From: an uncultured Candidatus Saccharibacteria bacterium
GTDB taxonomy: Bacteria; Patescibacteriota; Minisyncoccia; Phycocordibacterales; UBA5272
Direction: 5' to 3'
DNA length: 64,000 nt
Assembly (NCBI GenBank): GCA_964455195.1
Contig: CAYVUY010000001.1
Coordinates: 3,642-67,641, forward strand
Each line of letters starts with the position of its first letter. Within the stretch, counting starts at the first letter, position 1. The notes under the pieces were generated by a model that made no database searches, was not told the origin of the DNA, and saw nothing but the letters and a program-made list of their open reading frames with translations. Shown here in pieces: positions 23,576-63,020 of the stretch. The translations under genes were made by a program, and so were the position numbers.

Positions 23576-23726
23576 ATACAATGTTGGGGTGAGCTACACT
23601 TCTTCTGAAGTGACGAGTGGAGCATTCCTGCAGCCACTCACATAAAGCACTGTCAGTCAATCGAGTGCCGAAGCACGGCAAGAGAGCTTCCATGCAATAA
23701 GGCTCAACCCAACGTATACAGACTAA

Positions 23727-23757
23727 CAAAAAATCGCTGTTTTGAACAGCGATTTTT
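23727..23757. terminator. Bidirectional intrinsic terminator
   Basis: aaaaaatcgctgtt-ttga-acagcgatttttt. Confidence 0.6.
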
Positions 23758-23774
23758 TGTTAGGCATTTTAATA

Positions 23775-24146
23775 TTAATTAGGTTGATTCATTCCAGGAA
23801 CTGGAGGAACCTTCACTCGAGCATAAGGATCGATATTAAGAGTGCCTTGCATGAAAGAAATAATTCCCCAGATTGATACCATTACGAAAAGCGAAACCAC
23901 AGAATAAATCATGAATTGTTTTGCTTTTGCAACAGCCTCACCCCCTTCTCTTCCTTTCCAAATAAAGACTACAAGTCCGTAGAAGAAACACACCATTGCA
24001 ACCCCCATAAGTAATGTTACAAGTTGTGCAACAGCTCCTTGAGCAGTTCCTAAGAGGCTAGAGAGTGGATTATACCCTTGAGCAAGTGCTAATCCTGTTC
24101 CAGCTAAAGCACTTAATGCAGTAATGCTAATAGTTTTTATTTTCAT
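23775..24146 (-). CDS. Small secreted two-TM protein, VirB2/TrbC-like pilin-like family member P1
   Basis: Sec signal with ALAQG cleavage motif. TM1 ...CFFYGLVVFIW, charged loop KGREGGEAVAKAK, TM2 ...SLFVMVSIWGIISF. Confidence 0.6.
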   Translation of the reverse strand: MKIKTISITALSALAGTGLALAQGYNPLSSLLGTAQGAVAQLVTLLMGVAMVCFFYGLVVFIWKGREGGEAVAKAKQFMIYSVVSLFVMVSIWGIISFMQGTLNIDPYARVKVPPVPGMNQPN

Positions 24147-24192
24147 ATATTTTATAGTATCTAAAAAGTATATAAGCTATTTATAGCTAGCG

Positions 24193-24229
24193 CAAGGAAA
24201 AACCCACCTTTTAGGTGGGTTTTTCCTTG
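24193..24229. terminator. Bidirectional intrinsic terminator downstream of rpmG
   Basis: caaggaaaaacccacc-tttta-ggtgggtttttccttg. Confidence 0.6.
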
Positions 24230-24242
24230 TCATAGAAATGAA

Positions 24243-24374
24243 TTACTTCTTTGATTCCTTGAAAGTAACGTGTTTACGTAGCTTCTTAGAATATTTCTTG
24301 AGCTCGAGCTTACGCTGAACTTGCTTCTTGTTCTTTGTAGTGTGGTAAACCTCCTTGGTTTCCTTGTTTTTCAT
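24243..24374 (-). CDS. rpmG: 50S ribosomal protein L33, 43 aa. Below the ORF-track length cutoff.
   Basis: Translation MKNKETKEVYHTTKNKKQVQRKLELKKYSKKLRKHVTFKESKK matches the bL33 consensus (Y.T.KNK....LEL.KY....KH....E.K). Confidence 0.8.
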   Translation of the reverse strand: MKNKETKEVYHTTKNKKQVQRKLELKKYSKKLRKHVTFKESKK

Positions 24375-24452
24375 TATAAGGAGATGGTCTTGGATCTTCG
24401 TCATAGTTATAGAATAATACAGTATTTTGAGCTAATTTGCAAGAGACCTTTA

Positions 24453-25856
24453 CTAGACAAGCTTTTCCATCAAATACGCCTCTAATGTATCTATCGAGAT
24501 TCTCACCTGCTCCATTGTGTCGCGGTCGCGCACAGTAACAGCATTATCGGTAAGAGAATCGAAATCAAAGGTAACGCAATATGGTGTTCCTATTTCATCC
24601 TGACGGCGATAACGTTTCCCGATAGACTGCGTCTCATCATATTCTGTAAAAAACTTCTTTGAGAGCTTTTGCCATATCTCGGCTGCTGGCTTAGTTAGTT
24701 CTTCTTTTTTGGAAAGTGGAAGTATTGCAACCTTAACTGGAGCAATGCGCTTGTCGAATTTCAATACTACACGAGAATCATCCCCTATGACTTCTTCTGT
24801 GTATGCACTGTCAATGAAAGCAAGTGCCATACGTGCAAGTCCAACCGATGTTTCTACGATATGTGGTATGAATCTCTCACGTGTCGCTTCATCGAAATAT
24901 GAGAGATCTTGTCCTGAAAACTTACTGTGTTGGGTTAAGTCCCATGCTCCACGTGCATGTACTCCTTCTAATTCTTTAAACCCTCCTAACATCTTGTAAT
25001 CATACTCAATATCATAGGCTTCACTTGCATAATGAGCTAATTTTTCATGTTTATACCAATGTAATCTAGCTTCTGGAATACCATACTTAAGATAAAATTC
25101 CCAACGTGTTTGTTGCCATGCCTTAAAAATTTCTGCGGTTTGAGATTGATGATGGAAATATTGCATTTCCATTTGTTCAAATTCACGTGTTCTAAACACG
25201 AATTGTTTCGCAACAATTTCATTACGAAATGCTTTACCAATTTGAGCTATACCGAACGGTAGTTTTGGATGGAGGCTATCTAATGTATTTTTATATTCAA
25301 GATATATTCCTCCGCAAGTTTCAGGACGAAGATACATTACGTTCTCATCTGATAGCTCGTCTACAGGAGAACCAAGGTTAGACTTTACCATGAGAGAAAA
25401 TCTGCGTGCGGGAGTAAGGTCTGCTGAACCACAATTAGTACACACAAGTTTCTTCTCGTCTCTTAACTTATCCAACTCAACATTAATCCATTCGATAGAT
25501 TGCTTATCAGCCTGAATACCAAAACTTTCAAGAACATGATCTGCTCGGAAGCGATTATTACACTTACGACAATCAATTTGAGGATCATCGAATCCATCTA
25601 TATGCCCTGATGCTTTCCACGCTGTAGGGTGCATGAAAATAGCACTATCTAATCCAACAACATCTAATCTTTCCTGAACCATTGATTTCCACCATTCTTG
25701 TTTTATATTATTTAAAAGCAACGTTCCATAATGTCCATAATCATACACACCAGAAAGACCTCCATAAATTTCTGACGACGGGAAAATAAACCCTCTTCGT
25801 TTACAAAGTGAGACTATCGCTTCCATCGTATCTTGTGTTGATTGTTGTGTAGTCAT
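24453..25856 (-). CDS. glyQS: Glycine--tRNA ligase, homodimeric (alpha2) class II type
   Basis: RRGFIFPSSEIYGGLSGVYDYGHYG N-terminal signature. Class II motifs. Confidence 0.9.
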   Translation of the reverse strand: MTTQQSTQDTMEAIVSLCKRRGFIFPSSEIYGGLSGVYDYGHYGTLLLNNIKQEWWKSMVQERLDVVGLDSAIFMHPTAWKASGHIDGFDDPQIDCRKCNNRFRADHVLESFGIQADKQSIEWINVELDKLRDEKKLVCTNCGSADLTPARRFSLMVKSNLGSPVDELSDENVMYLRPETCGGIYLEYKNTLDSLHPKLPFGIAQIGKAFRNEIVAKQFVFRTREFEQMEMQYFHHQSQTAEIFKAWQQTRWEFYLKYGIPEARLHWYKHEKLAHYASEAYDIEYDYKMLGGFKELEGVHARGAWDLTQHSKFSGQDLSYFDEATRERFIPHIVETSVGLARMALAFIDSAYTEEVIGDDSRVVLKFDKRIAPVKVAILPLSKKEELTKPAAEIWQKLSKKFFTEYDETQSIGKRYRRQDEIGTPYCVTFDFDSLTDNAVTVRDRDTMEQVRISIDTLEAYLMEKLV

Positions 25857-25900
25857 GTATATATACGATACTAATATAAGCTTCTAAATAATTCAAATAA

Positions 25901-26155
25901 CTAGAAAGTAAATATTCCTGTGAATACTCCACTAAAAAGTTTGAAAAGTCCTCCAACAGAAAACATAATGAATAGTCCAATACCTCCCCAAAGAAGATGC
26001 TCCCTGGCTTTGTCTCTTACATCTGGGTTGTTCATCTGCCACATATACCACATCACACCAAAAAGAAAATATGCAAATGTTGCTCCTAGGAATAACTGGT
26101 AAAGTGGAACGAATACACTATTAATAAATTTGGTTAGCAAATCTGTTCCATCCAT
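25901..26155 (-). CDS. Small two-TM membrane protein related to the pilin-like family (P2). No obvious signal peptide.
   Basis: TM1 ...YFLFGVMWYMW, loop NNPDVRDKAREH, TM2 GIGLFIMFSVGG. Same spacing as P1/P3/P4. Confidence 0.5.
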   Translation of the reverse strand: MDGTDLLTKFINSVFVPLYQLFLGATFAYFLFGVMWYMWQMNNPDVRDKAREHLLWGGIGLFIMFSVGGLFKLFSGVFTGIFTF

Positions 26156-26172
26156 AATTACTATAGTGTACT

Positions 26173-26216
26173 ACAAAACAAAAATGATGTCGCTTCGCGA
26201 CATCATTTTTGTTTGT
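26173..26216. terminator. Long A/T-armed hairpin terminator
   Basis: acaaaacaaaaatgatgtcgc-ttcg-cgacatcatttttgtttgt. Confidence 0.55.
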
Positions 26217-26233
26217 GAGAACTTAAAAGTATA

Positions 26234-26650
26234 TTAACAACGTGTTGAACCTGGAACACAAGGTACTGGAACACCTCCACCTTGTCCTACTCCTACGATA
26301 GATCCAAGGAAGTTTACAATTCCCCAGATTGATACCATCACGAAGAGTCCAAGTATTGCCATTCCCATGAACTTTGCCCACTTCTCATGTTCACCTCCAT
26401 CCTTCTTGCCGAACATGAATCCTATAACTCCAACGAAAAGTGCGATAACTCCCACACCGATAAGTAAAGGAACAAGTGTACTTACTACAGCTTGACCAAG
26501 TCCCAAGAGACTAAGCACACTTTGTCCGATAGCTTGACCTGAAGCATTAGTTCCTCCGGATTGGATAACTTGTCCAGGAACGACACCCTGAGCAAGAGCA
26601 TATCCGACTCCTGCTAACGTCATACTAATTGTTGTTATTATTTTTTTCAT
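26234..26650 (-). CDS. Pilin-like family member P3 (signal peptide plus two TM, ends with Cys-containing tail)
   Basis: ALAQG cleavage motif. ...ALFVGVIGFMFGKKDGGEHEKWAKFMGMAILGLFVMVSIWGIVNF. C-terminal PCVPGSTRC. Confidence 0.6.
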   Translation of the reverse strand: MKKIITTISMTLAGVGYALAQGVVPGQVIQSGGTNASGQAIGQSVLSLLGLGQAVVSTLVPLLIGVGVIALFVGVIGFMFGKKDGGEHEKWAKFMGMAILGLFVMVSIWGIVNFLGSIVGVGQGGGVPVPCVPGSTRC

Positions 26651-26732
26651 ACTTTTTAATTATTACTTAAGTATATGCTTAATTTCAATGAAAACAAGGT
26701 GGATAAGGGAGTTACGATTGATTTATAAGGGA

Positions 26733-27446
26733 TTATGGCCCGACCGTTGACCCTGAGACACATGTGCCAGTATTCGGATCGAAGTTAGTTCCATTAGAGC
26801 ATCCACAGGTTCCAGTATCCATATCAAGAGGCACACAAGAAAGTCCAGATTTACAACTATTAGCACCGCTTATTGCACACGACGCTCCGAAGTCGCCCGC
26901 CCCTGCACCTGAAGAGCTAGTAGTTCTTGTGTAGTCAACCTTACAAAATCCTCCTGCACATGAACATCCATACCCAGCTGGAGCTATACAGGTACTACAT
27001 GGATTACCTTCAGGACAAGAGGAATTAGTGCTTGGACCTCCAGAAGAAGGTGTTGAGCCAGTAGGTGTGGTGCCTGTTTTACTGAATCCAAATGTTGGTA
27101 ATTGAATAACACTTACATCTCCATCTATTCCTATAGTTCTTTGTGCATAACGAATAATTCCCCAGATAGAAACCATGACGAAAAGTGATATAACTCCCCA
27201 GAGCATGAATTGACGGCCATTAGCCATCTTAGTAACTTCTCCGGTACGGGATGCAAAAATAAAAATTGCCATTCCATAAAAGAACGCAGTGGTGGCAAGT
27301 GCCATGAAGAGTGTAGCGAGTGCGGAGACAATATTAGCATTGATTGACGATATAGTCGATCCGAAATCTGTAATCTTATCAGCAGAAGCGATAAGCGGAG
27401 TGAGAGCACTTAAAAATAGTGTTGAAAATAATAATTGTTTTTTCAT
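26733..27446 (-). CDS. Pilin-like family member P4 with a roughly 100-aa disulfide-rich (16 Cys) C-terminal extension
   Basis: Start at MKKQLLFSTLFLSALTPLIASA (signal peptide). AFFYGMAIFIFASRTGEVTKMANGRQFMLWGVISLFVMVSIWGIIRY. Tail CPEGNPCSTCIAPAGYGCSCAGGFCKV...CGCSNGT. Confidence 0.6.
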   Translation of the reverse strand: MKKQLLFSTLFLSALTPLIASADKITDFGSTISSINANIVSALATLFMALATTAFFYGMAIFIFASRTGEVTKMANGRQFMLWGVISLFVMVSIWGIIRYAQRTIGIDGDVSVIQLPTFGFSKTGTTPTGSTPSSGGPSTNSSCPEGNPCSTCIAPAGYGCSCAGGFCKVDYTRTTSSSGAGAGDFGASCAISGANSCKSGLSCVPLDMDTGTCGCSNGTNFDPNTGTCVSGSTVGP

Positions 27447-27541
27447 AATAAATAATGTAGGTAGATGAATACTACTCTTAGGGTAAAGTATAGCAGTGAA
27501 GCATGAATAATAGCAAAGCAACTATTAACGTTTTAGAGGAT

Positions 27542-28573
27542 TTACTGCCCCATCGCTACACAACTAAGTTTCATACTTGCATCAAATTTACATGTACCTG
27601 GGAATCCCATATTAGTACAAGACATCCCATCGAATAATCCAGTACATGCCATATCTGTTGAATATTGGACACACTGTGCATTTTTACATACACCTCCGCC
27701 GGCACATGGTTGCCCATCTAAGAAGTTAGGCTGATCTGCACTGTAATAACACTCACTAGCTTTTGGTTCTGGAGTTGTTGTGGTTTGAGTCTGAGTATTA
27801 TTGGTGGTCTGCGTAGTTTGTGTAGTCTGTGTCGTTTGAACAGATGATTGAGCTGGGGTAGCTCCTGCCACCTTGTCTAAGGATCCAGCCAAAGAAAGAA
27901 GAAGTCCTTGTATAAGCATTAGCACTATTGTGATATATACCGTGAACCATAGGCGTCCTTTTGCTTTCTGAAGTTCTGGTGGATTACCACGTGCAGCAAC
28001 AAGTAGAAACCCAGCATATACCCACAATATAATAAGACCAATGAAAAGAATTTGAAGAATCGCTTGGAATACTTTCACTGCGAAGTCATACCAATTACCT
28101 CCAATATCAATTGGTGATTTAAGTGTGGTCCCTTGTGCATATGCGTGAGGGAATACATCCAAATTAATCGGCACCAATGACTGCGGGCATCCAGGACCTG
28201 CACGTAATAAACAATCTATTGGTTCTTGAATTCCTTTATCAATATTAAATTCTTTAAGTAAGTATGATGTTGCTGGAATAAGTGCAATAAGAGCGAAAAG
28301 TGCTCCGACAACAATAAGAATATTGGTAGTGAACTCTTTTCTTATTTCTGGAGAATACTGATGTGTACCGTATTTAATGGCAAGCCATGCAATACGCATT
28401 GCTCCATAGAACATCAAAAGTCCAAGACCAAGACTGATGAGATTTCGTGCTGTCTTAAAAAATTCAGGCCATGTACATGTTGGGCCATCGCATGTCACTA
28501 ATTGTTGTGCATGTGCTGAGAATGCTCCTATCACGAAGAAAGCTAGGAGTATCGGTAAAAAGTATTTTTTCAT
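27542..28573 (-). CDS. Pilin-like family member P5. Internally duplicated two-TM module, TQTT repeat linker and Cys-rich C-terminal domain.
   Basis: Signal peptide ...AFSAHAQQ. Two copies of the TM1-loop-TM2 module (LMFYGAMRIAWLAIKYGTHQ..., LWVYAGFLLVAARGNPPELQKAKGRLW...). TQTTQTTQTTNNTQTQTTTTP. 10 Cys in the last 70 aa. Confidence 0.6.
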   Translation of the reverse strand: MKKYFLPILLAFFVIGAFSAHAQQLVTCDGPTCTWPEFFKTARNLISLGLGLLMFYGAMRIAWLAIKYGTHQYSPEIRKEFTTNILIVVGALFALIALIPATSYLLKEFNIDKGIQEPIDCLLRAGPGCPQSLVPINLDVFPHAYAQGTTLKSPIDIGGNWYDFAVKVFQAILQILFIGLIILWVYAGFLLVAARGNPPELQKAKGRLWFTVYITIVLMLIQGLLLSLAGSLDKVAGATPAQSSVQTTQTTQTTQTTNNTQTQTTTTPEPKASECYYSADQPNFLDGQPCAGGGVCKNAQCVQYSTDMACTGLFDGMSCTNMGFPGTCKFDASMKLSCVAMGQ

Positions 28574-28576
28574 AAT

Positions 28577-29881
28577 TTATCTAGTATAAGACTCTGTGAG
28601 AGCTCTTACAAATCCCTCCCCTGATTCTGATATAGTTCTACGTCCTGAGAGGATATCGTTAACAGTAGCTTGTAACAATGCACTAGAAGTATTTGCATTA
28701 ATATCATACCAACCACGCGCAACTAAAATACTCTTTATATATTCTTGATTTACAGTAGTTGCCTGAGAGAGTATAGATTTAAGAGGAGAGAATCCCCCTG
28801 CGATAGATGCCATTTGGGCACCATAGATATTACTCGTAAGTAAATACTGCGCGGTAAGTGCTGTTGTGAGATTAGTTGAGCGTTTAAGTGTCGCTATAGC
28901 ATATACCTTCATACCTGTTGCTATTGTCGGATGACCTTTTGATTGTGGGAAAGATTTCACCCCTATATCTAAACGAGGATTCTTCGCGCGAATGAGAGCT
29001 TCCTCATCAGAATACCCTACATACATAGCAAGCTTCTCCGCTACGAATTGATCTTGGGCAAGTTGTGCTAATGGACTCCAAGTATAGGTTGCCTTACCTG
29101 GGTCTGAGAACTGTGTGAAGAATCTAAGTGATGACGTTAGTGGGTGAACAGGATCATTTGAAGTTAAAGGAGTATCAGCAAGTACCGTAAATTTCTCTTC
29201 AGTTCCAGAAATATTTCTCACCACTGGAACTTGTCCGAGCTGAGCTACGAAGGTCATGATGATATCTTTTGCTGCAGGAATATTAGTATATGAGCCAAGT
29301 GCGATAGCGCTTTGTAAAATTCTATTATTCACATCTATTACTGTAAGCTTAGGAACGATAGCTGCGATTTCATCCCACATAGTCGGTGGATCGATAAGCC
29401 CTGCATTAGAAAAGAGCGTATGGTTATAAAAAAGCATAAGCGGTGATATAGATATAGGTAAACCAAGAGCTCCACTTTCACTAAACAATATGGACATACC
29501 ATCTACATACAAGTCACGATATTGTTGTTGACTCATACTTTGTAGTGGGAATGGGTAGATACGATTACGTTGTTCGAGAATAATTTGGTACGGCACAAGA
29601 ATAAGATCAGGACCCCCACCAGAAGCTAGTGCTTCAAGTAATTTAGGAGAAAACGTTGCTTCATCAACTTGATTATAAGAAATACGATATGTCTTGGTTG
29701 TGGCATTAACTGCCTGAAGGAAACTTTCTACTTGGTTCTGAGGAAGAGTCCCCCACATTACAACTGTTCCCACAGGAGTATTGGCTTTATTTCCAGTACC
29801 AATAGGTAACTTACCGGAGAAAATAAGTACAGCAAACACCGCTGCAAAAATTCCCAATCCTAAAATAATATTCTTAAACAT
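28577..29881 (-). CDS. Membrane-anchored extracellular solute-binding protein family 1-like protein. Orphan, with no cognate permease adjacent.
   Basis: Start at MFKNIILGLGIFAAVFAVLIF (TM anchor). ...GGGPDLILVPYQ..., typical of SBP_bac_1. Confidence 0.6.
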   Translation of the reverse strand: MFKNIILGLGIFAAVFAVLIFSGKLPIGTGNKANTPVGTVVMWGTLPQNQVESFLQAVNATTKTYRISYNQVDEATFSPKLLEALASGGGPDLILVPYQIILEQRNRIYPFPLQSMSQQQYRDLYVDGMSILFSESGALGLPISISPLMLFYNHTLFSNAGLIDPPTMWDEIAAIVPKLTVIDVNNRILQSAIALGSYTNIPAAKDIIMTFVAQLGQVPVVRNISGTEEKFTVLADTPLTSNDPVHPLTSSLRFFTQFSDPGKATYTWSPLAQLAQDQFVAEKLAMYVGYSDEEALIRAKNPRLDIGVKSFPQSKGHPTIATGMKVYAIATLKRSTNLTTALTAQYLLTSNIYGAQMASIAGGFSPLKSILSQATTVNQEYIKSILVARGWYDINANTSSALLQATVNDILSGRRTISESGEGFVRALTESYTR

Positions 29882-29885
29882 ATGT

Positions 29886-30410
29886 TTATAATTTGGTAGC
29901 AATAAATGCGTAATGATAATCCCCTGCTGGGAGTCTCTCACCGATTTGGAATCCATGCTTAGTGAAAAGTTCTTCAGCTCGCGCTTCAGAGACTACATGA
30001 GATGGATGCGGACCTATACCATCATGGGCCCCGGACCAATCAACACAAAGTACTCTTCCGGATGGGACTAAGATGCGAGCAGCTTCTTCTATGGCTTTTT
30101 CTGGATGCTCGAGCATGAAAAGAATGTTAGAGATTATAACTGCTTCCATTGAATACGAATCGATATATGTAGAAGTTTCAAGATCCGCCCACACAGTTTC
30201 TATATTTAAGAACCCCATTTTATGAGCAGTGTGCTCAAGAGTTTGTAATAAGTCACGATGAATATCTATCGCATAGACTTTACCTGTATCAGTAACTGCT
30301 CGAGCAAGTTCAAGAGCATACACACCAGAGCCCGCACCAAAGTCAGCTACAGCGGTGCCTTTTTTAATATACAATTTTTCTACGAGATGTGCTGGGGTAA
30401 GAAATGCCAT
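29886..30410 (-). CDS. Class I SAM-dependent methyltransferase
   Basis: Motif I VADFGAGSGVYALELA. Confidence 0.8.
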   Translation of the reverse strand: MAFLTPAHLVEKLYIKKGTAVADFGAGSGVYALELARAVTDTGKVYAIDIHRDLLQTLEHTAHKMGFLNIETVWADLETSTYIDSYSMEAVIISNILFMLEHPEKAIEEAARILVPSGRVLCVDWSGAHDGIGPHPSHVVSEARAEELFTKHGFQIGERLPAGDYHYAFIATKL

Positions 30411-33784: not shown

Positions 33785-35377
33785 CTAATACCCCACTGTC
33801 ACAGTAATCTCTGCTACTGTATCGGTTCTACTTACCCACATAGCGCACATTGTTCCAGGTGTTGGTTTACAGTCATTGTAAATGGTTTTAAGTAATTTCG
33901 CGGTATATGTTCCTGCTGTTGGATACGTGTAATATGACAGATATCCATCACAGCTCAATTTTCCTTGGGTGTTAGTTGTCCCCGAAACCTGAGAAATAGT
34001 ATTCATAGCATTTGCATACATCGAATCTACTTTACCATTACCATAATCTACTGAGTAGAGGGAATTTTGATCACACATAGAGATGACATTACCACCATTT
34101 GCTTTACTCCCCGCTGTAAAAACCACAGCAAGTGGGTTAGTTACATACGGTTGTCGTGCATATGTAAAAGACAATACCCCATCTGAAACTACTGGAGGGG
34201 TAGCGACTTCATTCGAAGTTGTAGGACACGCTACGAATTCACAGTTTGGTCCGGATCTCCCTACATAAGTTTTACCATCCGGACAAAGTTTCGCTTCTGC
34301 AGTACAAGCAACCATACCAGGATTAACCGGAGAAGGTGTAGGAGATGGAGAGTATCCTGAAATTGGTGGTAGTGGTGCAGATTGAGTACCGCATGTTAAT
34401 GCTTTTATTTTACTTCGTGTGAGAGGTCCTACACGCCCTGTGTTATCTATATTATTTGCACGTTGAAATCTTTTTACAGCAGAAAGCGTTGCTACTCCAA
34501 AAAATCCTGTTGGTTCTCCAGATAAATACTGTGGACTGAGGAAATCTTGAAGAAGAGAAACTTCTCCTGAAGTTTTTGCATCGCGAGCACGATAAGAAAG
34601 ATTGTATTGTAAATCTATACAATTATTTGAACTAACGAAATCATCAGTGAGAGCAAATGAAGTTGAAAACGAAATTAATAATAAAGAAGCTAAGACAAAT
34701 TTTTTCATATGTATTAAGAGTAACACCAGTAAAAGCTTTTCTACCATATCGTGGACAAGAATCACCGCTCCTAATTTTCCTTCAATATCTTTTCTTTTAA
34801 TAGTAAGTTTCTCAACTGGTTCAACCTTTTCAGAACCTGCTTCTTTCAAGAAGATCGGCAGTGTTTGTTCGTTGTAGTCCATCGGGATGCAAAGCTTAGG
34901 TTCAAGTGCTACAGATAACTTATGAGCATCATATGGATTAAGCGTTACTTCGTCTCCGCCAACTGGTACGAAAAGTACATCTGTTTCATCAATAATTTCT
35001 TTATGTGCTGGTTCAAGTATGTGATGTAGCGCACCCAAAAAGGTAATGCGAATACCATCTAAAGTAAAGACATAACTGGTATTTTGATATATTCTCTTTT
35101 TCTTTCCATCAAGAAGTTCTGTCTCTGTCGCGAATCCTTTAATGAATATTCCCGCTACTTCATATTCCCCTGCGCCTTTAATTACGAAAGGTACTTTATC
35201 TCCATGTGTTACCTGTTCGGAACCATTGTAATCTGGGTGATTAGTAGTAATAAGACATATATCTGCTCCGTATTTCGCAATCTTTCCTTTACCATCTTTC
35301 GATACTGGGTTGGTAGCAATAGTGAGATCTCCAACTTGAAGCTTGAAATGCTCTCGTCCGTAATGTGTGATTATCAT
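33785..35377 (-). CDS. Single ORF joining an N-terminal metallo-beta-lactamase-fold hydrolase to a secreted peptidoglycan-binding / PKD-like Cys-containing protein. Possibly two genes fused in frame, with an internal start and signal peptide at 34708.
   Basis: MBL part: ICLITTNHPDY ... GALHH. Internal MKKFVLASLLLISFSTSFA signal. PG_binding_1-like LQDFLSPQYLSGEPTGFFGVATLSAVKRFQ. C-terminal AGTYTAKLLKTIYN PKD-like strand. No stop codon between the parts. Confidence 0.6.
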   Translation of the reverse strand: MIITHYGREHFKLQVGDLTIATNPVSKDGKGKIAKYGADICLITTNHPDYNGSEQVTHGDKVPFVIKGAGEYEVAGIFIKGFATETELLDGKKKRIYQNTSYVFTLDGIRITFLGALHHILEPAHKEIIDETDVLFVPVGGDEVTLNPYDAHKLSVALEPKLCIPMDYNEQTLPIFLKEAGSEKVEPVEKLTIKRKDIEGKLGAVILVHDMVEKLLLVLLLIHMKKFVLASLLLISFSTSFALTDDFVSSNNCIDLQYNLSYRARDAKTSGEVSLLQDFLSPQYLSGEPTGFFGVATLSAVKRFQRANNIDNTGRVGPLTRSKIKALTCGTQSAPLPPISGYSPSPTPSPVNPGMVACTAEAKLCPDGKTYVGRSGPNCEFVACPTTSNEVATPPVVSDGVLSFTYARQPYVTNPLAVVFTAGSKANGGNVISMCDQNSLYSVDYGNGKVDSMYANAMNTISQVSGTTNTQGKLSCDGYLSYYTYPTAGTYTAKLLKTIYNDCKPTPGTMCAMWVSRTDTVAEITVTVGY

Positions 35378-52475: not shown

Positions 52476-53993
52476 ATGAAAAACACCTTGGAAGATGCGG
52501 GGAAAATAGGACTATTTATTAAACAACTCCGCGAAGAAAGAGACTTAACCCAAGGAGATTTAGCTGACGCACTGAAAACAACTCAAAGCGTCGTTGCTCG
52601 TATCGAAACAGGTAAGCAAAATATTACCATAGAACAGATTTCTAAAATTTCTGAAGTCTTAGGCCGACCTATTCTTTCTCTTCAAGATACACTTGATTTT
52701 AAAATCGAAGGTGGGCGCAAACTTTCAGGAAGTATTGAAACCAACACGTCTAAGAATGGTGCTATTAATATGCTGGTTGCTTCTCTTGCAAATAGCGGCA
52801 CCACCATATTACATGGTATTCCACATATTGAAGAAGTGTATAGATATATAGAACTTTTAGAGAGTATTGGCGTTAAGGTACGCTGGATAAAAGATAACTC
52901 AGTAGAAATAGTACCTCCCAAAAAATTAAATCTAAAGGCCATGAACAAGAACGTTGCGATGAAAATACGCTCTTTCACTTTTATCGGCGCTTTCATTCAC
53001 TATAGTAATCACTTTTCACTCCCCCACTCTGGAGGATGCAAAATGGGTGAACGCACTGTAGCATCTCATAAATATGCTCTTGAGCATCTAGGTGTAAAAA
53101 CGGTGACGAAAGAAAGTTTCTATGCTATCTCATATACCAAACTACAACCTGGTCGCATTCCACTCTATGAATCTTCTGACACCGGTGCTATCACCGCTAT
53201 TATTGCTGCATCTCGTATCCCAGGGGTGACAGTAATTAAATTTGCTCCACCTAATTATCAAGTTCAGGATGTTTGTTTCTTAATGGAAAAGATGGGGGTC
53301 AAGATTGAAGGTATAGGAACGAGCACACTTACTATTCATGGTAAGAAAGATATTAATGTAAATATAGAACATCATAACAGTGAAGACCCTATAGAAAGTA
53401 TGTTCTTCATCTCTGCGGCAATAGTAACTAAATCTAAGCTCACCATTACTAGATGTCCTATTGATTTCTTAGAACTAGAACTAGAGAAGCTTCGTCATAT
53501 GGGACTCATATACCGACTTTCAAAACCTTACCTTTCGTATAATGGTCGCACTCATTTAGTAGATATTACTATTATGCCGTCGAAGCTTACTGCTCCGACA
53601 GATAAAATCCACACCCAACCTTTCCCTGGAATAAATAATGACAACCTTCCATTCTTCGTACCAATATGTAGTTTTGCAGAAGGTCAAACCCTTATTCATG
53701 ATTGGACATGGGAAAACCGTGCTATTTATTTTACAGAACTCAATAGACTTGGGGCAGATATTAAATTACTTGATCCACATCGAGCACTCGTAACTGGTGT
53801 GAAAAAACTTCGTGGTGCTCAGATAGTTTCCCCTCCAGCATTACGCCCTACTGCTATTATTCTTATCGCCATGCTGGCTGCAGAAGGAACATCTATGCTT
53901 CGTAATGTGTATTCTATTAAACGTGGCTACGCTGATATAGCAGAAAGACTTAATTCTATCGGCGCCAAAATAACTGTCATTAAAGGAGTGTAA
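52476..53993 (+). CDS. murA: Fusion protein: N-terminal XRE-family HTH DNA-binding domain plus full-length UDP-N-acetylglucosamine 1-carboxyvinyltransferase (MurA/EPT family)
   Basis: IKQLREERDLTQGDLADALKTTQSVVARIETGKQNITIEQISKISEVLG (Cro/C1 HTH). Then GSIETNTSKNGAINMLVASLANSGTTILHGIPHIEEV and LPHSGGCKMGERTVASH (MurA active-site Cys loop). Confidence 0.8.
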   Translation: MKNTLEDAGKIGLFIKQLREERDLTQGDLADALKTTQSVVARIETGKQNITIEQISKISEVLGRPILSLQDTLDFKIEGGRKLSGSIETNTSKNGAINMLVASLANSGTTILHGIPHIEEVYRYIELLESIGVKVRWIKDNSVEIVPPKKLNLKAMNKNVAMKIRSFTFIGAFIHYSNHFSLPHSGGCKMGERTVASHKYALEHLGVKTVTKESFYAISYTKLQPGRIPLYESSDTGAITAIIAASRIPGVTVIKFAPPNYQVQDVCFLMEKMGVKIEGIGTSTLTIHGKKDINVNIEHHNSEDPIESMFFISAAIVTKSKLTITRCPIDFLELELEKLRHMGLIYRLSKPYLSYNGRTHLVDITIMPSKLTAPTDKIHTQPFPGINNDNLPFFVPICSFAEGQTLIHDWTWENRAIYFTELNRLGADIKLLDPHRALVTGVKKLRGAQIVSPPALRPTAIILIAMLAAEGTSMLRNVYSIKRGYADIAERLNSIGAKITVIKGV

Positions 53994-54071: not shown

Positions 54072-55757
54072 TTGTTTTATATGCCACACAGAACTACACA
54101 GAACAAACAATCATTGTCTCATCCTAATAATGTTTCTTGTCGTAACATCAATGTTATTGCCAAGTATGTACATAACAAAATTGGTAGCGATGTTCTTCTC
54201 ACCTCTAATCTGACGTACATGCCAGAGTATTTGTTAAATGAGCACAATTGGGTACCGCTTCATGTCTATAACGAAGTAATGAATCGTGCTATCTCACTCC
54301 TAAATGATCCAGATGCGCCTTATAAAATGGGCCTTTCTGCGATGGAGCTTGAAAGTTGGGGAATTTTTAAATATATACAAAAAATATTTCTTACTGTTGT
54401 TATCGACCCGATCATTGTCTACCAAAAGATTAGTGAGTATAATCCCCTCTTTAATAACACTAAGGACTTTCATCTTCTTTCTACGAGCGATACGCATTGT
54501 GTTTTCAAAGTAGAATTCCACACAGATGTAAATCCGGTAGAAGATTATCATAGTGACAAGTATATTCAAGGATTACTTGCGAGCATTCCTCAGATATGGA
54601 ATCTTCCTTCCTCTTCTGTGAAATCAATTTCGAATGAATATGACGTTATCGATTTACTACACAAAAAAGGAAATGTACCTCTTGATGCTATTGAAATGAA
54701 TAGTGACACTTTATTTATACGAGGAGAGGCAATTGGGAAACGAATCGCCAGCTATAAAGAAGAAAACTGGTGGCAAGATACTGTACGCTCCACTCATAAA
54801 ATACATGATGCGCTTATGTATGAGAGTCTCATCGAAGCGAAATCAAAAGTTGGATCAGGTATTCTTATTACAAAGGATTATAACGCGAGCGATATGGTGC
54901 ATTTAAAAGTTGGTGAAATATATAATGCTCCCCATTTCCTCTATCATATTTCATGGGATAAACCATCGCTTTCTCTTAGACTTCGCCATCTTTTTTTTAA
55001 TCAAGGTCGCTCTCGCAAATCTTATGAAAGTGCAATCGTAGCATCCTTATCTACCATTAAAGGGTACACCGAGACGCTTGAACAAAAGGTAATCGAACGT
55101 ACTCACGAACTAGAAGTAGCAAAAAAAGAATCAGAATACTGGCGAAACAAAGCAGATGAACTTCTTTCTACAATGCTTCCAGAACACATTGCGAAGAAAA
55201 TGATTGAAAAGGAATTAGAAAGTCAGGAAGTTCATGGCACTGTACTATTTACAGATATTGTAGGCTTTACTGAGTATAGCCAAAATAATGATAAAGAATT
55301 TGTAGACCAAGAACTGAAACTATACTTCGCAGAAATTACAAACATAGTTACTAGACATGGTGGTTGGGTAAACAAATTTTTAGGAGATGGAATGCTTGTA
55401 GTATTTGGATTAAATGGAGGAACGCAGTATGTAGAAGATGGAGCAAAGGCAGCAAAAGCAATAGTCGAAACAATAGAGCAGTATTCATGGGGAACACGAG
55501 TAAGTCTCTCTACGGGGCCATTTACTATTGGTGAATACGGTAATGGTGCACTCAGACGATTCGATTGTATGGGTAATGTTCTTAATTTAGGTAGTCGCTT
55601 ACAAAATCACGCTGACAAAAATCAAATTCTTATTTGTGATAATACTTACAAAGCATTATCTAAAGAAAGTGCGATGTATAACTTTGGTAAAATGCGTACT
55701 CTAGATGTGAAAGGTATTGGTGAAGTAACAGCATACCCTCTTATTACTTCTCATTAA
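54072..55757 (+). CDS. Class III adenylate/guanylate cyclase with a large uncharacterised N-terminal sensor region and coiled-coil linker
   Basis: C-terminal VLFTDIVGFTEYSQ ... KFLGDGMLVVFG ... class III cyclase motifs. Confidence 0.8.
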   Translation: MFYMPHRTTQNKQSLSHPNNVSCRNINVIAKYVHNKIGSDVLLTSNLTYMPEYLLNEHNWVPLHVYNEVMNRAISLLNDPDAPYKMGLSAMELESWGIFKYIQKIFLTVVIDPIIVYQKISEYNPLFNNTKDFHLLSTSDTHCVFKVEFHTDVNPVEDYHSDKYIQGLLASIPQIWNLPSSSVKSISNEYDVIDLLHKKGNVPLDAIEMNSDTLFIRGEAIGKRIASYKEENWWQDTVRSTHKIHDALMYESLIEAKSKVGSGILITKDYNASDMVHLKVGEIYNAPHFLYHISWDKPSLSLRLRHLFFNQGRSRKSYESAIVASLSTIKGYTETLEQKVIERTHELEVAKKESEYWRNKADELLSTMLPEHIAKKMIEKELESQEVHGTVLFTDIVGFTEYSQNNDKEFVDQELKLYFAEITNIVTRHGGWVNKFLGDGMLVVFGLNGGTQYVEDGAKAAKAIVETIEQYSWGTRVSLSTGPFTIGEYGNGALRRFDCMGNVLNLGSRLQNHADKNQILICDNTYKALSKESAMYNFGKMRTLDVKGIGEVTAYPLITSH

Positions 55758-58160: not shown

Positions 58161-58610
58161 CTATCTTGTAACAGTAATCGTAGCGCCTTGCTCAGCAAGT
58201 GGAGCTGTAACAGTAATACGTCCATACGCATTCTTTGAAATGGTATATCCGTTGCCGTTAACAGTAATCTTTTGTGGGTCCTGAGGAATAGCAGTAAGGT
58301 ACTTACCATTAACTGTAAGTACTGACAAATCTATAAGTCCAGTACACGAAGCTGCTCCTGATGCACAAATTTCTGTTGTTGATGCCACGATAGATGCAGG
58401 CAATACTCCATTGTTATCAATTGAGTATTGGTATGCTGCGTTAAGAAGTGTTGTCACATCAGAACGACGTTGTGCGTTACGAGTATCACCAAGTTGCTTA
58501 CCTGGGTTAATAGCCACGATAACGATACCTGCCAAAATAGCGATAGCTGCAACCACGAGAAGGATTTCAATAAGTGTAAACCCTTTCTGGCTACGTAATA
58601 ACTTTTTCAT
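58161..58610 (-). CDS. pilA: Type IV major pilin (prepilin), copy 1
   Basis: MKKLLRSQKGFTLIEILLVVAAIAILAGI class III signal (G/FTLIE). C-terminal Cys pair CASGAASC. Confidence 0.85.
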   Translation of the reverse strand: MKKLLRSQKGFTLIEILLVVAAIAILAGIVIVAINPGKQLGDTRNAQRRSDVTTLLNAAYQYSIDNNGVLPASIVASTTEICASGAASCTGLIDLSVLTVNGKYLTAIPQDPQKITVNGNGYTISKNAYGRITVTAPLAEQGATITVTR

Positions 58611-58624
58611 GCTCTACTTTTAAA

Positions 58625-59074
58625 CTATCTTGTTACGGTAATTACCGCACCTTGCTCAGCAAGTGGAGCTGTAACGGTAATACGTCCATTCACATCCTTA
58701 AAGATGTTGTAACCATTACCATTTGCAGTAACCTTTTGTGGGTCTTGTGGAATACCAACAAGATACTTACCGTTAAGAGCAAGTACTGATAGGTCTATAA
58801 CACCAGTACATGATGCTGCTCCTTGCGCACAAATTTCTGTTGATGAAGCAGTAATGCCTGCAGGAAGTACTCCATTGTTATCAATTGAGTATTGGTATGC
58901 TGCGTTAAGAAGTGTTGTCACATCAGAACGACGTTGTGCGTTACGAGTATCACCAAGTTGCTTACCTGGGTTAATAGCCACGATAACGATACCTGCCAAA
59001 ATAGCGATAGCTGCAACCACGAGAAGGATTTCAATAAGTGTAAACCCTTTCTGGCTACGAAGTAATTTTTTCAT
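58625..59074 (-). CDS. pilA: Type IV major pilin (prepilin), copy 2
   Basis: Identical N-terminal 72 aa to copy 1. Diverged C-terminal D-region (CAQGAASC). Start chosen at MKKLLRSQKGFTL. Confidence 0.85.
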   Translation of the reverse strand: MKKLLRSQKGFTLIEILLVVAAIAILAGIVIVAINPGKQLGDTRNAQRRSDVTTLLNAAYQYSIDNNGVLPAGITASSTEICAQGAASCTGVIDLSVLALNGKYLVGIPQDPQKVTANGNGYNIFKDVNGRITVTAPLAEQGAVITVTR

Positions 59075-59305
59075 AAAATGTAAATTAGTATTTTTGTATT
59101 TAAACACATTAACCTTATAAATGAGGCACTATAGAATTTGTAGACTTGATTGAAGTTCGTGACAGAGCTCATGGATTAATGTCATCATACGTTGATGAAA
59201 AACATAGAACCTGAAACCGTAGCCAAGAAATTCATCAAGCACACAAATTCTATATAAAAAGGCACAAATAACTTGCCTTAGTCAGTATATCAAATATAGA
59301 AGGGT

Positions 59306-59731
59306 TTAGAAGTCCCCAACCTCTTTCCATGAGGATAAGATTATTGAGGGGGTAGTCGTAGCAATAACGATTTTTACCTTACTTAGGATGGTTCCGACCT
59401 GCCCTGTTGCATTAACCGTTATATTTTGGCCGTTTTGGCTGGTAATAGTGTAGGAACATGTACCCGAAGCAATCGTTAAATTACCACTCCCCGTGGTTGT
59501 TCCAGTTTCTAGTATTTTTTGCAAAGCCTCTTCTCCACATGAAGAAGCTGCTACTTTAGCACTTCCTGCTTGCTGTAATGCGAAATCTGTCCTTGATGCA
59601 GTCACCCCAGAAAGTAACACTGAAAGCATGATTGCTGTGCCAATAGCTCCAATAATAAGAACTGAAAGTAGCGCTATGTACCCTCGACGCATATGTACTC
59701 TTAATCCCCTTGTATGAAAGGTACTTGTCAT
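59306..59731 (-). CDS. Pilin-like / pseudopilin protein with atypical N-terminus
   Basis: ...MRRGYIALLSVLIIGAIGTAIM hydrophobic N-terminal helix after Gly. Cys pair. Lacks Glu+5. Confidence 0.5.
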   Translation of the reverse strand: MTSTFHTRGLRVHMRRGYIALLSVLIIGAIGTAIMLSVLLSGVTASRTDFALQQAGSAKVAASSCGEEALQKILETGTTTGSGNLTIASGTCSYTITSQNGQNITVNATGQVGTILSKVKIVIATTTPSIILSSWKEVGDF

Positions 59732-59735
59732 GGAT

Positions 59736-60254
59736 TTATTGTCTCAGTGTAGCACTTCCTGTAAATGACTTTGTGAAGGAATTTTCATTACGACCACTGG
59801 TATTAATATGGTCTATAGTAAAAGAAATACGTACTATTCTGTCAGTAGAACCTACAGATGAGATATTTTGAAATAGAAGTGAGGAAACAGCCACATGAGA
59901 ATTCGTAAGTAATATAGGAGCATTTGACCCCTCTGTGATTCTCACAGAACCATTTACTATATCAAATACTGTCGGACTAAGAAGCGGGTCAGACATAGTC
60001 ATTGATAGTGAAGTGCTTGTTGCTCCTATACTAGGGAAATCAACAGTTTTGGCATTTCGTATTGTCTGAGTTACTAATTGCATTACTTGTAACCCCTGCT
60101 GATTAACATCACCTATAGATTGATTTTTGATTCTTGAACTCATGAGGAATGTTAAGAACAAAGAAAGCGAAAGGAGTACGAATGACAAAACACTTACATA
60201 TAATAGTAATTCAACTAGTGAAAACCCTCTGAAAGTTCTTGGTACTATTTTCAT
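59736..60254 (-). CDS. Minor pilin / pseudopilin (prepilin-type N-terminal cleavage/methylation domain)
   Basis: RGFSLVELLLYVSVLSFVLLS. Confidence 0.7.
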   Translation of the reverse strand: MKIVPRTFRGFSLVELLLYVSVLSFVLLSLSLFLTFLMSSRIKNQSIGDVNQQGLQVMQLVTQTIRNAKTVDFPSIGATSTSLSMTMSDPLLSPTVFDIVNGSVRITEGSNAPILLTNSHVAVSSLLFQNISSVGSTDRIVRISFTIDHINTSGRNENSFTKSFTGSATLRQ

Positions 60255-60256
60255 AC

Positions 60257-62590
60257 TTACTTTTGCCAGAAAGCAAATGAGAATGGTGAAGAAATAACTT
60301 GTGGAAGTGTTGTTTCTAGGGCGCCTCCATCTGAGTTAGTCCATGTGAATGTTGATGTGCTTGTTAGACTGAGTCTTTTCGCAAAGAGGTCATTAGCATT
60401 ATCCGATGTAAGGAACATAAGCTGACTTGTATCAACTGGATCCATGTGTATATCCATGTAACCACGAGTAGTATTAATAAGTGGTGTTGGGACGAAGTCT
60501 GGTTGACGTGTGAAGACACCAGCATTTCCTGAATACCAATTAATATTAGGAGAGTTAAGGTCTGTATAGACAACAACGGATCGTGTTGAAGTACCGTTAA
60601 TTAACCACCCTGTTGTTACTAACTTAGATGCAGTATATGGAACGCTACACGAAGTATCGGCGTTTGCTGTATCAGTCCATGTCGAACCATTCCAATATCC
60701 GATTTGAAGATCGCCCCCTGCATTACCAATGGACGCAAACACTATTTCATCTGTTTTTGGATTGGCAGAAATATCAAGTGATGTAGCGTCGTCTAAGAAT
60801 GTAGGTGGTGTTGATACTGGTCCCCATATACAATTAGCAATTCCACCAGTACATGTTCTATATCTCACACCGTTTGTTCCATTATTTCCCGCACCATTTG
60901 CCCATACCAACATTAAATCTCCAGACACAGATTCGAATTCAAGATCCATATCTTCTATATCATGAGACGATGAAACTATTTCAACATTATTATCTGTTAC
61001 TGCAGATGGTTCATTAACCCACGCAGTACCATCCCAGATTTTTGCAGAAATATCATCACTAGTATCTACCCATGTAAGCGCTATTATATTTGACCCTGGG
61101 CGTCTATCTTGTGCCATCTTTACATACATAATGTCATTTGATGTACGAAGTGGATCAAGGAGTGTTTCTCCAGACCAGTTAGCAGACCCACATCCGGTTG
61201 CACCACTTTTCGTACGATATCCGAGTTGGCCAGGGTTATGTGTCCCTTTACTATAGACAACCATCGCATCACCTGATGTTTTTTCAAATGCTATATCATT
61301 ACGATGTCTATTACCAACTCCACCTGAAGCTGCTACGAACTCTTGTGTCCAGCTTGTACCATCAAAACACATCACAATAAGTGACCCTGTTGAATCGTAA
61401 TACCCTGCAATTGCTGTGTGATTAATAGGTGAAGTTCTAATAATCCACGTTGGGCCAACGGTTGCTGTGAATGTTCCAGTTTCAGCACTAAACGTATTAG
61501 AAGATGTAAAATAATTTCTAAACTTAGGAACATTGGTTCCATCTCCATAAATCATAAGTCCGGAAAGAGATGTACTACTACCGTTACCATTACCTTGTTG
61601 TACTATTTCTTCATTTGTAAGGGTACAAACTTTATCATCACCTGGTAGGAAAGATATTGTTCCATTAGTAAAACATCCTCCACTGTAGGTAAGAGTATAA
61701 AGTGAGCTCGATGCTTCTGTAATAACATATGATCCAGAATCTATGGTCGTTGTCGCGCCAACCGTTACTGTTGTTGAGCCGATTTTATACGGTGCGAAAT
61801 CAGAAACAACCTTGGATCCTCCATGATTAATAACTGTAGCGTCTATTTTAATATGTGAAAGTTTTTCTTCATTGGTAATAGTACATAACTTAGATGATGA
61901 GGCTGTGAGTGTTACTTGGCCACTTGCATTACAATCCCCACTAAAGGTTTGTATATAGTTTGGATTGGTCGCCTCAGAAACAGTGTACGTTCCTGCTCCG
62001 AACTTAGTAGAAGTAGCAAGTTGCACCGTCGTAGCACCCACTTTATACGGCGCGAAATCTGCAGTCGTTTTGGAAAGCCCGTGATTAATAACAACCTTAT
62101 TAACCATAAGTCCTTGTCCCAAATTAAAAACTGTTTTCCAATTCGTAAGTCTTCCATCGAGAGAAATACTTCCTGTTCTTCCTGGTGTCTGTTGCCATGT
62201 AACATTCGTGGTGATATTTTTCCTGTTAGCATCAACTGTCGAAATGATAACTTGTCTTGTATAGATTCCAGTAACATCTTGTGTTCCAGAAAAACTCCAT
62301 GCGTTATTAGAGTACACAAGACCATGAGTTCCATCAGTTAAGCTGGCGAAGTTAACATTTTTCATACTTCTGACAGCTTCTTGCCCCTCTTCTGCTAAGA
62401 TTGTTGCTTGAGATCTATTCCCAGCGAGTGTTGATGCCTCGAAACCATAATAAAAAACACCCACAAAGGCAGTAACAAGCATGATAAAAACAGAACTCGA
62501 CAAAAGTACTTCGACAAGTAAGAAGCCGTGTCTCTTCCTATTAATAGTCAACCATTCCTTTTTGATTAATTGTGACATTTCTAACTTCAT
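60257..62590 (-). CDS. Large (about 780 aa) pilin-like protein with prepilin-type N-terminus. Putative pilus tip adhesin.
   Basis: KRHGFLLVEVLLSSSVFIMLVTAF N-terminal pilin helix followed by a large beta-rich domain. Start among M24/M28 of the track ORF. Confidence 0.6.
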   Translation of the reverse strand: MKLEMSQLIKKEWLTINRKRHGFLLVEVLLSSSVFIMLVTAFVGVFYYGFEASTLAGNRSQATILAEEGQEAVRSMKNVNFASLTDGTHGLVYSNNAWSFSGTQDVTGIYTRQVIISTVDANRKNITTNVTWQQTPGRTGSISLDGRLTNWKTVFNLGQGLMVNKVVINHGLSKTTADFAPYKVGATTVQLATSTKFGAGTYTVSEATNPNYIQTFSGDCNASGQVTLTASSSKLCTITNEEKLSHIKIDATVINHGGSKVVSDFAPYKIGSTTVTVGATTTIDSGSYVITEASSSLYTLTYSGGCFTNGTISFLPGDDKVCTLTNEEIVQQGNGNGSSTSLSGLMIYGDGTNVPKFRNYFTSSNTFSAETGTFTATVGPTWIIRTSPINHTAIAGYYDSTGSLIVMCFDGTSWTQEFVAASGGVGNRHRNDIAFEKTSGDAMVVYSKGTHNPGQLGYRTKSGATGCGSANWSGETLLDPLRTSNDIMYVKMAQDRRPGSNIIALTWVDTSDDISAKIWDGTAWVNEPSAVTDNNVEIVSSSHDIEDMDLEFESVSGDLMLVWANGAGNNGTNGVRYRTCTGGIANCIWGPVSTPPTFLDDATSLDISANPKTDEIVFASIGNAGGDLQIGYWNGSTWTDTANADTSCSVPYTASKLVTTGWLINGTSTRSVVVYTDLNSPNINWYSGNAGVFTRQPDFVPTPLINTTRGYMDIHMDPVDTSQLMFLTSDNANDLFAKRLSLTSTSTFTWTNSDGGALETTLPQVISSPFSFAFWQK

Positions 62591-63020
62591 TGGTAGTTGA
62601 TGTAAGTGTTGTTGTTCCAGTGCTTTGTGGCATGCCAGTTTGTTTACTGAACAAAACATCGTTTAATCCAGAAAACACAATGCTAGCCGATACAGAGGCG
62701 TCCTCATCGTATGCCTGATCGCGTGTTGCATAATTAATACCCTTATATAAGAGTATACTCCCCGTTGCTACGTGCACCCCCCATGAACTATCCCCATCTG
62801 TAATTTGTGACAGTACTTGCGCCCTTCTAAAATTTTCAACGAGGGTCATTACTGCGATATCAGTATCATTTCTTACCATGAATTTATGGTACGCTGGTAT
62901 TGTCATTGTAAAAATAATTAGAAGTATAGAAAGAGATAGTGCAATTTCTATCATCGTGAAAGCTCTGTAGCTAGATTGCGAGTTGCGATATGTAGGTTGT
63001 GTGAAATCAAAATTTTTCAT
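62541..63020 (-). CDS. Minor pilin (FimT/GspH-like)
   Basis: YRAFTMIEIALSLSILLIIFT prepilin N-terminus with Glu+5. Confidence 0.7.
   Translation of the reverse strand: MKNFDFTQPTYRNSQSSYRAFTMIEIALSLSILLIIFTMTIPAYHKFMVRNDTDIAVMTLVENFRRAQVLSQITDGDSSWGVHVATGSILLYKGINYATRDQAYDEDASVSASIVFSGLNDVLFSKQTGMPQSTGTTTLTSTTNEVRNVTINQKGMVDY

Follow-up and report, generated by a model that had tools for sequence, protein, structure and literature searches.

VirB2-type pilins are normally minimal helical hairpins. In Patescibacteria, divergent VirB2-like genes have already been described in arrays of 2-11 genes (Quinonero-Coronel et al., 2025, Microb Genom, PMC12102498), and such an array, together with the type IV secretion system (T4SS), is essential in Southlakia epibionticum (Wang et al., 2023, Cell, PMC10633639; PMC12857230). 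A virB4 gene was found near the pilin gene in 1135 of 1948 assemblies, so the linkage is not obligatory (PMC12102498). In this study, we analyzed a stretch of 64,000 nucleotides of contig CAYVUY010000001.1 from an uncultured bacterium (the 64-kb window, in which all positions below are counted), whose nearest genomic relatives are metagenome-assembled genomes labelled Nomurabacteria, Paceibacterota or Kaiserbacteria. These relatives place the source among Patescibacteria of the Paceibacteria type. The window carries a tandem array of five divergent pilin paralogs, P1 to P5, that extends from 23775 to 28573 on the minus strand as in arrays of the PF18895 type, and one of them, P4, continues past its hairpin into a tail rich in cysteine (Cys). 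Tails of this kind are a recurrent, labile and modular feature of the pilin family, of which P4 is one instance.

The array shares with the published Patescibacterial PF18895 arrays its tandem divergent paralogs, which are sometimes split by a non-pilin gene (here glyS, 24453-25856), and the combination of a signal peptide with a hairpin. The published arrays have been treated as small pilins, whereas here a hairpin, a linker and disulfide-type modules are combined, and T4SS core genes do not adjoin. No mention of Cys-rich or modular pilin tails was found in PMC12102498, PMC10633639, PMC12857230 or a full-text literature search; the arrays were known already, and the disulfide-rich, modular tails are apparently undescribed in the literature searched. 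Two more distant systems offer partial parallels. In Streptococcus sanguinis, the modular type IV pilins PilB (vWA module) and PilC (lectin module; PMC8179133; PMC9934059) have a binding module grafted on the pilin C-terminus, which gives the filament adhesive capacity, but these pilins belong to an unrelated class with an N-methyl motif and large known folds, whereas P4 is a VirB2-type hairpin with Cys modules of 30-40 residues. The Trw T4SS of Bartonella (multiple TrwL/VirB2 and TrwJ/VirB5; cited in PMC12102498) likewise has divergent VirB2 paralogs in tandem, for which a role in varying the recognition of host surfaces has been proposed; in that diderm system, however, the variation lies inside the small pilin itself and no disulfide-rich domains are appended. 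Adhesins of the PrgB type were not found in Patescibacteria by a survey from 2025.

The pilin P4 and its cysteine-rich tail

P4 is a protein of 237 amino acids (aa) encoded at 26733-27446. The open reading frame (ORF) list had extended its frame to an upstream TTG at 27521; we take the ATG at 27446 (MKKQLL...) as the true start, because the database copy of the protein (P0001) also has 237 aa and the orthologs begin at an equivalent MKK. All five paralogs matched the Pfam family PF18895 (T4SS_pilin), P1 (29.2 bits) and P2 (29.8 bits) above the gathering cutoff of 26.6 bits and P3, P4 and P5 just under it; the P4 match (22.8 bits, E = 9.7e-5) covered profile positions 2-70 of 71. In addition, P4 was 37% identical to P1 (BLASTP E = 2e-21) and 33% identical to P3, and weak NCBIfam matches linked all five paralogs to the "pilin-like conjugal transfer protein" (Mbov_0395) of a Mycoplasma integrative and conjugative element. 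The layout of P4 fits that of the PF18895 family, in which a signal peptide precedes a hydrophobic hairpin whose two helices are joined by a short polar loop. A Sec-type signal peptide was read from the sequence at residues 1-22 (27381-27446), with the sequence MKKQLLFSTLFLSALTPLIASA before DK; its boundary is supported by the ortholog P0002, which has the same ASA end before DK, and by the start of P0001 at the ATG at 27446. The VirB2-like hairpin occupies residues ~32-104 (27135-27353) and consists of two hydrophobic helices around a short basic loop, SRTGEVTKMANGRQ. It is supported by PF18895, the BLASTP alignment to P1, hydropathy (segments 42-66 and 79-101) and an AlphaFold2 (AF2) model, in which helices 32-68 and 71-104 form a helical hairpin with a predicted local distance difference test score (pLDDT) of ~70. 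None of P1 to P5 contained the N-terminal methylation motif (PF07963, N_methyl), and genuine N_methyl pilins were found elsewhere in the window (58161-60254). P4 had been called pilin-like in the preliminary description of the window; on the PF18895 match, the signal peptide and the helical hairpin, it is therefore a VirB2-like protein, so that the term holds in the sense of VirB2 and type IV secretion and not in the sense of a type IV pilus pilin.

Directly behind helix 2 lies a junction motif, DVSVIQLPTFGF (27087-27122; family consensus [D/G]-x-T/S-x-I-x-[IV]-P-x-[IF]-x-F), and then a Gly/Ser/Thr/Pro linker (residues 121-142, 27021-27086) that is predicted to be flexible from its composition and its AF2 pLDDT of 30-40. 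An LPTFG string in P4 was considered as a sortase signal and rejected, as it neither matches LPxTG nor lies at the C-terminus, and across the family the consensus reads I-x-I-P-x-F. The last 95 codons of P4 and its TAA stop fill 26733-27020, with a translation that runs from SCPEGNPCSTCIAPAGYGCSCAGGFCKVDY to CGCSNGTNFDPNTGTCVSGSTVGP. The preliminary description had reported 16 Cys in this tail together with the motifs CPEGNPCSTC, GCSCAGGFC and CGCSNGT and a Pro/Thr/Ser/Gly linker. The motifs and the linker are present as described, and the translation contains 12 Cys, at residues 144, 150, 153, 161, 163 and 168 and at 190, 198, 204, 214, 216 and 229; the earlier observation is thus partly confirmed, in that the tail is real and its Cys number is corrected to 12. 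At the background Cys frequency of 0.86% in 24 Pfam-supported window genes, the probability of at least 12 Cys in 95 aa is 4.5e-11. Behind the linker, the Cys form two six-Cys modules with spacings of 5-2-7-1-4 and 7-5-9-1-12. Module 1 (residues 144-172, 26931-27017) reads C-x5-C-x2-C-x7-C-x-C-x4-C-KVDY, and module 2 (residues 190-229, 26760-26879) reads C-x7-C-x5-C-x9-C-x-C-x12-C. A Ser/Gly/Ala linker (residues 173-189, 26880-26930) separates them, and the eight C-terminal residues VSGSTVGP with the TAA stop complete the gene (26733-26759).

Orthologs of P4 were found in four independent assemblies: P0002 (48% identity) in two ENA assemblies (L001 and L002) and a second ortholog in two Logan assemblies (L083 and L084). 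The architecture of P4 recurs in all four. Synteny in L083 was complete, with Lactamase_B_3, gyrA, a methyltransferase, a solute-binding protein (SBP), P5, P4, P3, P2 and glyS. The ORF runs uninterrupted through the Cys-rich tail in 4/4 assemblies, so a frameshift or a missed stop codon ahead of the tail is excluded. The tails were aligned on their junction, as MAFFT of the tails alone mis-registers module 1. Between P4 and P0002, 12/12 Cys columns were identical against 20/64 (31%) of the non-Cys columns, and the indels fell in loops; the second ortholog keeps 10 of the 12. In module 1, none of the three ortholog sequences departs from the six Cys and a D-Y pair, although indels occur in the loops between these residues. 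In module 2, the six Cys are identical in P0002 and four remain in L083, where the second and third are lost together, which agrees with more than one disulfide connectivity. Synonymous sites were saturated (proportion of synonymous differences, pS, 0.58-0.78), which makes the dN/dS ratio unusable, and only contrasts in the proportion of nonsynonymous differences (pN) were therefore used. Among orthologs, pN was graded, rising from the core (0.16-0.25) through the modules (0.26-0.56) to the linkers (0.43-0.74). Specifically, the linker of residues 121-142 was conserved neither in length nor in sequence (pN 0.43-0.57), and the inter-module linker showed 0-33% identity (pN 0.51-0.74). By these comparisons, the Cys scaffold of the P4 tail stays fixed and its loops diverge rapidly.

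Cysteine tails across the pilin family and the array

A pilin-core hidden Markov model was built from the five window paralogs, iterated once and applied to related loci. The 80 GTDB species loci (Paceibacteria/Nomurabacteria relatives) yielded 404 pilin ORFs, 4-6 in nearly every locus, including 69 with tails of 30 aa or more, of which 52 contain 4 or more Cys. A second, independent sample of 80 loci from JGI metagenomes yielded 340 pilin ORFs, and 16 of these had a tail with 4 or more Cys. With both sets combined and duplicates removed, 71 of 702 unique pilin ORFs (~10%) had a tail that was 30 aa or longer and contained 4 or more Cys. The number of tail Cys was even in 101 and odd in 4 of the 105 tails with at least 2 Cys (P = 1e-25). 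The tails share an anatomy, namely a junction motif, a G/S/T/P/N linker (median 38 residues to the first Cys) and then diverse modules. A junction of the form [IVLM]x[IVL]Px[IFLVM] was present in 39/71 Cys-tailed pilins (55%) versus 12-13% of the other pilin classes, and it stands directly after helix 2 in examples such as that of P4, QNTIIIPTIDF and DVTTIKIPSFDFGG; it may serve in processing, form a surface strand or signal assembly.

The modules comprise 4-Cys units (C-x5-C-x5-C-x4-C, C-x5-C-x4-C-x6-C and C-x8-C-x8-C-x5-9-C), 2-Cys helical pairs and C-x12-13-C hairpins, and the 4-Cys patterns were enriched 45-70 fold in pilin tails over other ORFs. When the same Cys modules were sought in the non-pilin ORFs of related loci, mostly short antisense ORFs were returned. 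Among the 702 pilin ORFs, the pattern of P4 module 1 occurred only in the P4 ortholog group, as did the P4 module combination, and the terminal hairpin motif of P4, CSNGTNFDPNTGTC, was also found in the tails of L009 and L069. The proteins P0003 and P0004, which are 52 and 36% identical to P4, carry different Cys modules. Other tails hold other domains: in L087 (1431-2453, plus strand), two PG_binding_1 domains stand in tail position (E = 2.5e-32), and in L024 (269-2122, plus) and L094 (383-2245, plus), Cys modules are followed by a peptidase-like region with an HExxH motif (MMHEGAHV) and weak Peptidase_Mx matches. The locus L008 (4001-5239, plus) encodes a 412-aa pilin with 26 tail Cys in which the 4-Cys unit GGxCxYxGxCxGTxxCxxxRC is repeated in four tandem copies; these repeats collectively scored 31.9 bits to DUF7107, above the Pfam cutoff.

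Within the array, Cys-containing ends had also been reported for P5 and P3, and both were found. P5 (27542-28573) has a signal peptide, two tandem pilin hairpins with four transmembrane (TM) segments, a linker of Thr and Gln, and a tail with 8 Cys (at residues 275-338, 27560-27751) made up of two copies of the common 4-Cys module type; PF18895 matched at residues 166-224, the NCBIfam Mbov_0395 pilin-like model matched in two stretches, and P1 aligned to both hairpins. The predicted outside loops of P5 hold two conserved short Cys pairs, CDGPTC and CLLRAGPGC. Its orthologs P0008 and P0009 (246-247 aa) and the L001 copy (243 aa) end after the second hairpin and have no tail. P3 (26234-26650; PF18895 E = 4e-4) is a short paralog that ends in VPVPCVPGSTRC with a C-x6-C pair (26237-26260), and its L083 ortholog ends in VPVPQVPGANRP, where both Cys of the terminal pair are missing together. 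The remaining two are the minimal, tail-less P2 (84 aa, 25901-26155) and P1 (123 aa, 23775-24146), which has a short Cys-free tail and is set apart from the other four by glyS.

Probable tethered display of the tail and competing explanations

The C-terminus and tail of P4 are predicted to lie outside the cell membrane, because a cleaved signal peptide is followed by two TM segments. P5 offers an internal check, as every one of its Cys lies in a segment predicted to face outward: 28/33 behind the signal peptide, 121/129 between its two hairpins, and those of the tail. No cytoplasmic loop of P5 contains a Cys. Disulfide formation in the P4 tail is presumed; an enrichment of MdbA-like oxidoreductases and VKOR has been reported for genomes of the candidate phyla radiation (CPR; PMC6744442).

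We consider it probable, with some reserve, that P4 is a modular VirB2-like pilin that tethers disulfide-bonded, fast-diversifying binding modules outside the cell, with a component of the host or of the wall as their most likely target. P4 would be exported through Sec and its signal peptide cleaved, and the two helices would enter the membrane as a hairpin whose basic loop faces the cytoplasm, which leaves the C-terminus outside. The junction strand and the ~22-residue Gly/Ser/Thr/Pro linker would hold the two modules off the membrane or off the outer face of a pilus, and three intramolecular disulfides probably lock each of them. The modules may then bind or recognize a ligand, most likely a host-cell or cell-wall component, and array neighbours gain and lose such tails. 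A ligand-binding or recognition module is suggested because the Cys scaffold is fixed, the loops and linkers evolve fast, and tails are gained and lost in the array. We infer that the tail may serve in binding or adhesion and that P4 may be incorporated into a filament. The preliminary description had proposed a Cys module exposed at a filament surface as an adhesin or receptor-binding tip, and that interpretation is partly supported, since the tail appears to be a genuine, translated, extracytoplasmic and Cys-constrained module on a pilin-family hairpin.

Several results weigh against this reading of P4 as a binding pilin. Its PF18895 score stays under the gathering cutoff, an appendage of 130 residues on every subunit may fit a VirB2-type filament poorly for steric reasons, and no pilus of these proteins has been demonstrated in any Patescibacterium, for which only the "potential to elaborate conjugative pili" has been stated (PMC12857230). 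The Pfam scan of the window left out eight listed ORFs (six of 111-168 aa and two of 224 and 153 aa); among the ORFs scanned, neither VirB4, VirB6 or another T4SS core gene nor a thiol-disulfide oxidoreductase was found. A second group of results concerns the fold. The tail of P4 alone had no Pfam or NCBIfam match at E<=10, and the tail of P5 returned negligible zinc-finger noise only. A PDB sequence search with the P4 tail gave chance matches only (E>0.3), an exhaustive phmmer search of 1.84 billion representative proteins returned the tail itself and P0007, a spurious Cys-free repeat protein, and a JGI metagenome scan with tail-derived patterns gave 183 pattern matches, 0 of them confirmed. 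The P4 tail is, as far as these searches can detect, without a relative outside its own ortholog group, and no known binding fold is assignable to it because of these missing relatives and Pfam or PDB matches. Mean AF2 pLDDT was ~52-53 for both the full protein (6-sequence alignment) and the tail (2-sequence alignment), and the fold matches of the tail were weak and non-significant, the best group comprising a double inhibitor cystine knot (ICK) toxin, the epidermal growth factor (EGF) domains of Pfs25 and PvRipr, PA1b and purotoxin. Foldseek with the full P4 model returned generic helical hairpins (chemoreceptors and SK channels) and was uninformative.

The EGF-like or knotted fold that had been proposed for the tail is at most suggested. 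Six Cys in ~30-40 residues, predicted beta-hairpins and the weak fold matches resemble EGF-like and knottin mini-domains. The tail-alone prediction placed two beta-hairpins in module 2, with pLDDT 58-69 at best, and the module 2 spacing of 7-5-9-1-12 fits the EGF-like pattern, with six Cys, a C-x-C between the fourth and fifth and loops in the EGF range; no Pfam EGF or knottin match was obtained. The spacing of module 1, as read from the translation, is outside both the EGF and the ICK ranges. Because of the low AF2 confidence, the absence of database matches and a module 1 that fits neither pattern, the tail is best described as two putative three-disulfide mini-domains of no assigned fold.

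Could the tail be an artefact, produced by a frameshift, a missed stop or chance Cys in meaningless low-complexity sequence? Its Gly/Ser/Thr-rich composition and the absence of a database domain would agree with that, but the continuous ORF in four assemblies, the retention of 12/12 Cys against 31% of other columns, the probability of 4.5e-11 and the parity of 101 even to 4 odd tails effectively refute it. A cytoplasmic or metal-binding (Zn or Fe-S) Cys cluster in place of disulfides, to which the high Cys density with C-x2-C and C-x-C elements might point, is effectively excluded as well: the signal peptide and the even number of TM segments put the tail outside, it contains no His and no paired CxxC...CxxC knuckles, and the zinc-finger models of Pfam gave no match to P4 and a negligible one to P5. 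A cleaved pro-peptide has more to recommend it and still seems improbable to us. Here the junction would be a processing site, and the tail would be cut off during pilin maturation or released as a disulfide-rich toxin or signal. Diderm systems offer a precedent, as their TrbC/VirB2 propilins are trimmed at the C-terminus; the I-x-I-P-x-F junction is concentrated in Cys-tailed pilins (55% versus 12-13%), and toxin-type knottins (double-ICK, PA1b and purotoxin) lead the weak fold matches. However, there is no protease gene associated with the array and no sign of cleavage, a long linker of low complexity makes better sense as a spacer that displays a tethered tail, and tails can hold PG-binding domains, which work while attached.

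The most serious rival, which we regard as possible and rather unlikely, keeps the tail attached and dispenses with the pilus. P4 would be a membrane-anchored surface protein, with the hairpin as a two-helix anchor and the linker threading the Cys modules through the wall to the surface of the cell itself, where they might bind its wall or that of a host, without polymerization. In favour of this rival, the scanned window ORFs include no T4SS core gene, the PG_binding_1 domains in the tail position of L087 suit wall attachment, the linker is long and flexible (median 38 aa to the first Cys), and Gram-positive-type T4SSs are generally without pili (PMC12102498). Against such an anchor, VirB2-like arrays adjoin virB4 in 1135/1948 assemblies (PMC12102498) and are essential with the T4SS in Southlakia (PMC10633639; PMC12857230), and the short tail-less paralogs P1 and P2 stand beside tailed ones, as for major and minor subunits.

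Genomic setting and implications

The Pfam-scanned ORFs of the window are mostly housekeeping, transport or signalling genes (uvrABC, gyrA, glyS, hisS, ftsA/ftsZ, pentose-phosphate enzymes and a signal peptidase), and several had no match. The SBP gene (28577-29956) ends 3 nt before the start of P5, and the order SBP-P5-P4-P3-P2, which is kept in L083 and L084, suggests that it is co-transcribed with the pilin array. Two long perfect hairpins with flanking A and T runs lie at 26180-26210 (stem of 13-14 bp, between the P3 stop and the P2 start) and at 23723-23763 (19 bp, just downstream of P1); they look like bidirectional terminators that separate members of the array. A promoter and terminator scan found no more sites than in shuffled sequence.

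A type IV pilus cluster occupies 58161-63997 on the minus strand, with PilC (T2SSF, 63017-63997), the three N_methyl pilins (58161-60254) and an 800-aa protein without Pfam match (60257-62659, minus) that is possibly a tip or adhesin protein. Elsewhere in the window, a 505-aa protein (52476-53993, plus) joins an N-terminal XRE-type HTH_3 domain to a full EPSP_synthase domain of the MurA/AroA type, which is an unusual fusion; a 561-aa protein (54072-55757, plus) combines an HNOBA-like segment with an adenylate/guanylate cyclase catalytic domain, and an acyltransferase-HAD fusion adjoins it on the opposite strand. A 530-aa protein (33785-35377, minus) contains Lactamase_B_3 and PG_binding_1. The L083 locus starts with a Lactamase_B_3-matching gene in the syntenic position, which runs past the end of the locus, so that its PG_binding_1 part is out of view.

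The junction motif, the linker and the even Cys number together provide a sequence signature for a phylum-wide census of tailed pilins. To our knowledge, P4 and its relatives would be the first case of a "modular pilin" outside type IV pili. Epibiotic life depends on the T4SS and the pilin array in the only Patescibacterium that is genetically tractable, and the tails are concrete, clonable candidates for host recognition. More tentatively, and as a proposal we still hold to be doubtful, the tailed pilins may be a subclass of Patescibacterial VirB2-like pilins that stud the essential T4SS-associated fibre as the host-recognition adhesins missed by surveys of these epibionts, with hypervariable tails that are mostly disulfide modules and sometimes peptidoglycan-binding or peptidase-like. 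If that were true, the gain and loss of tails and the shuffling of modules within arrays would set the host range of these bacteria.

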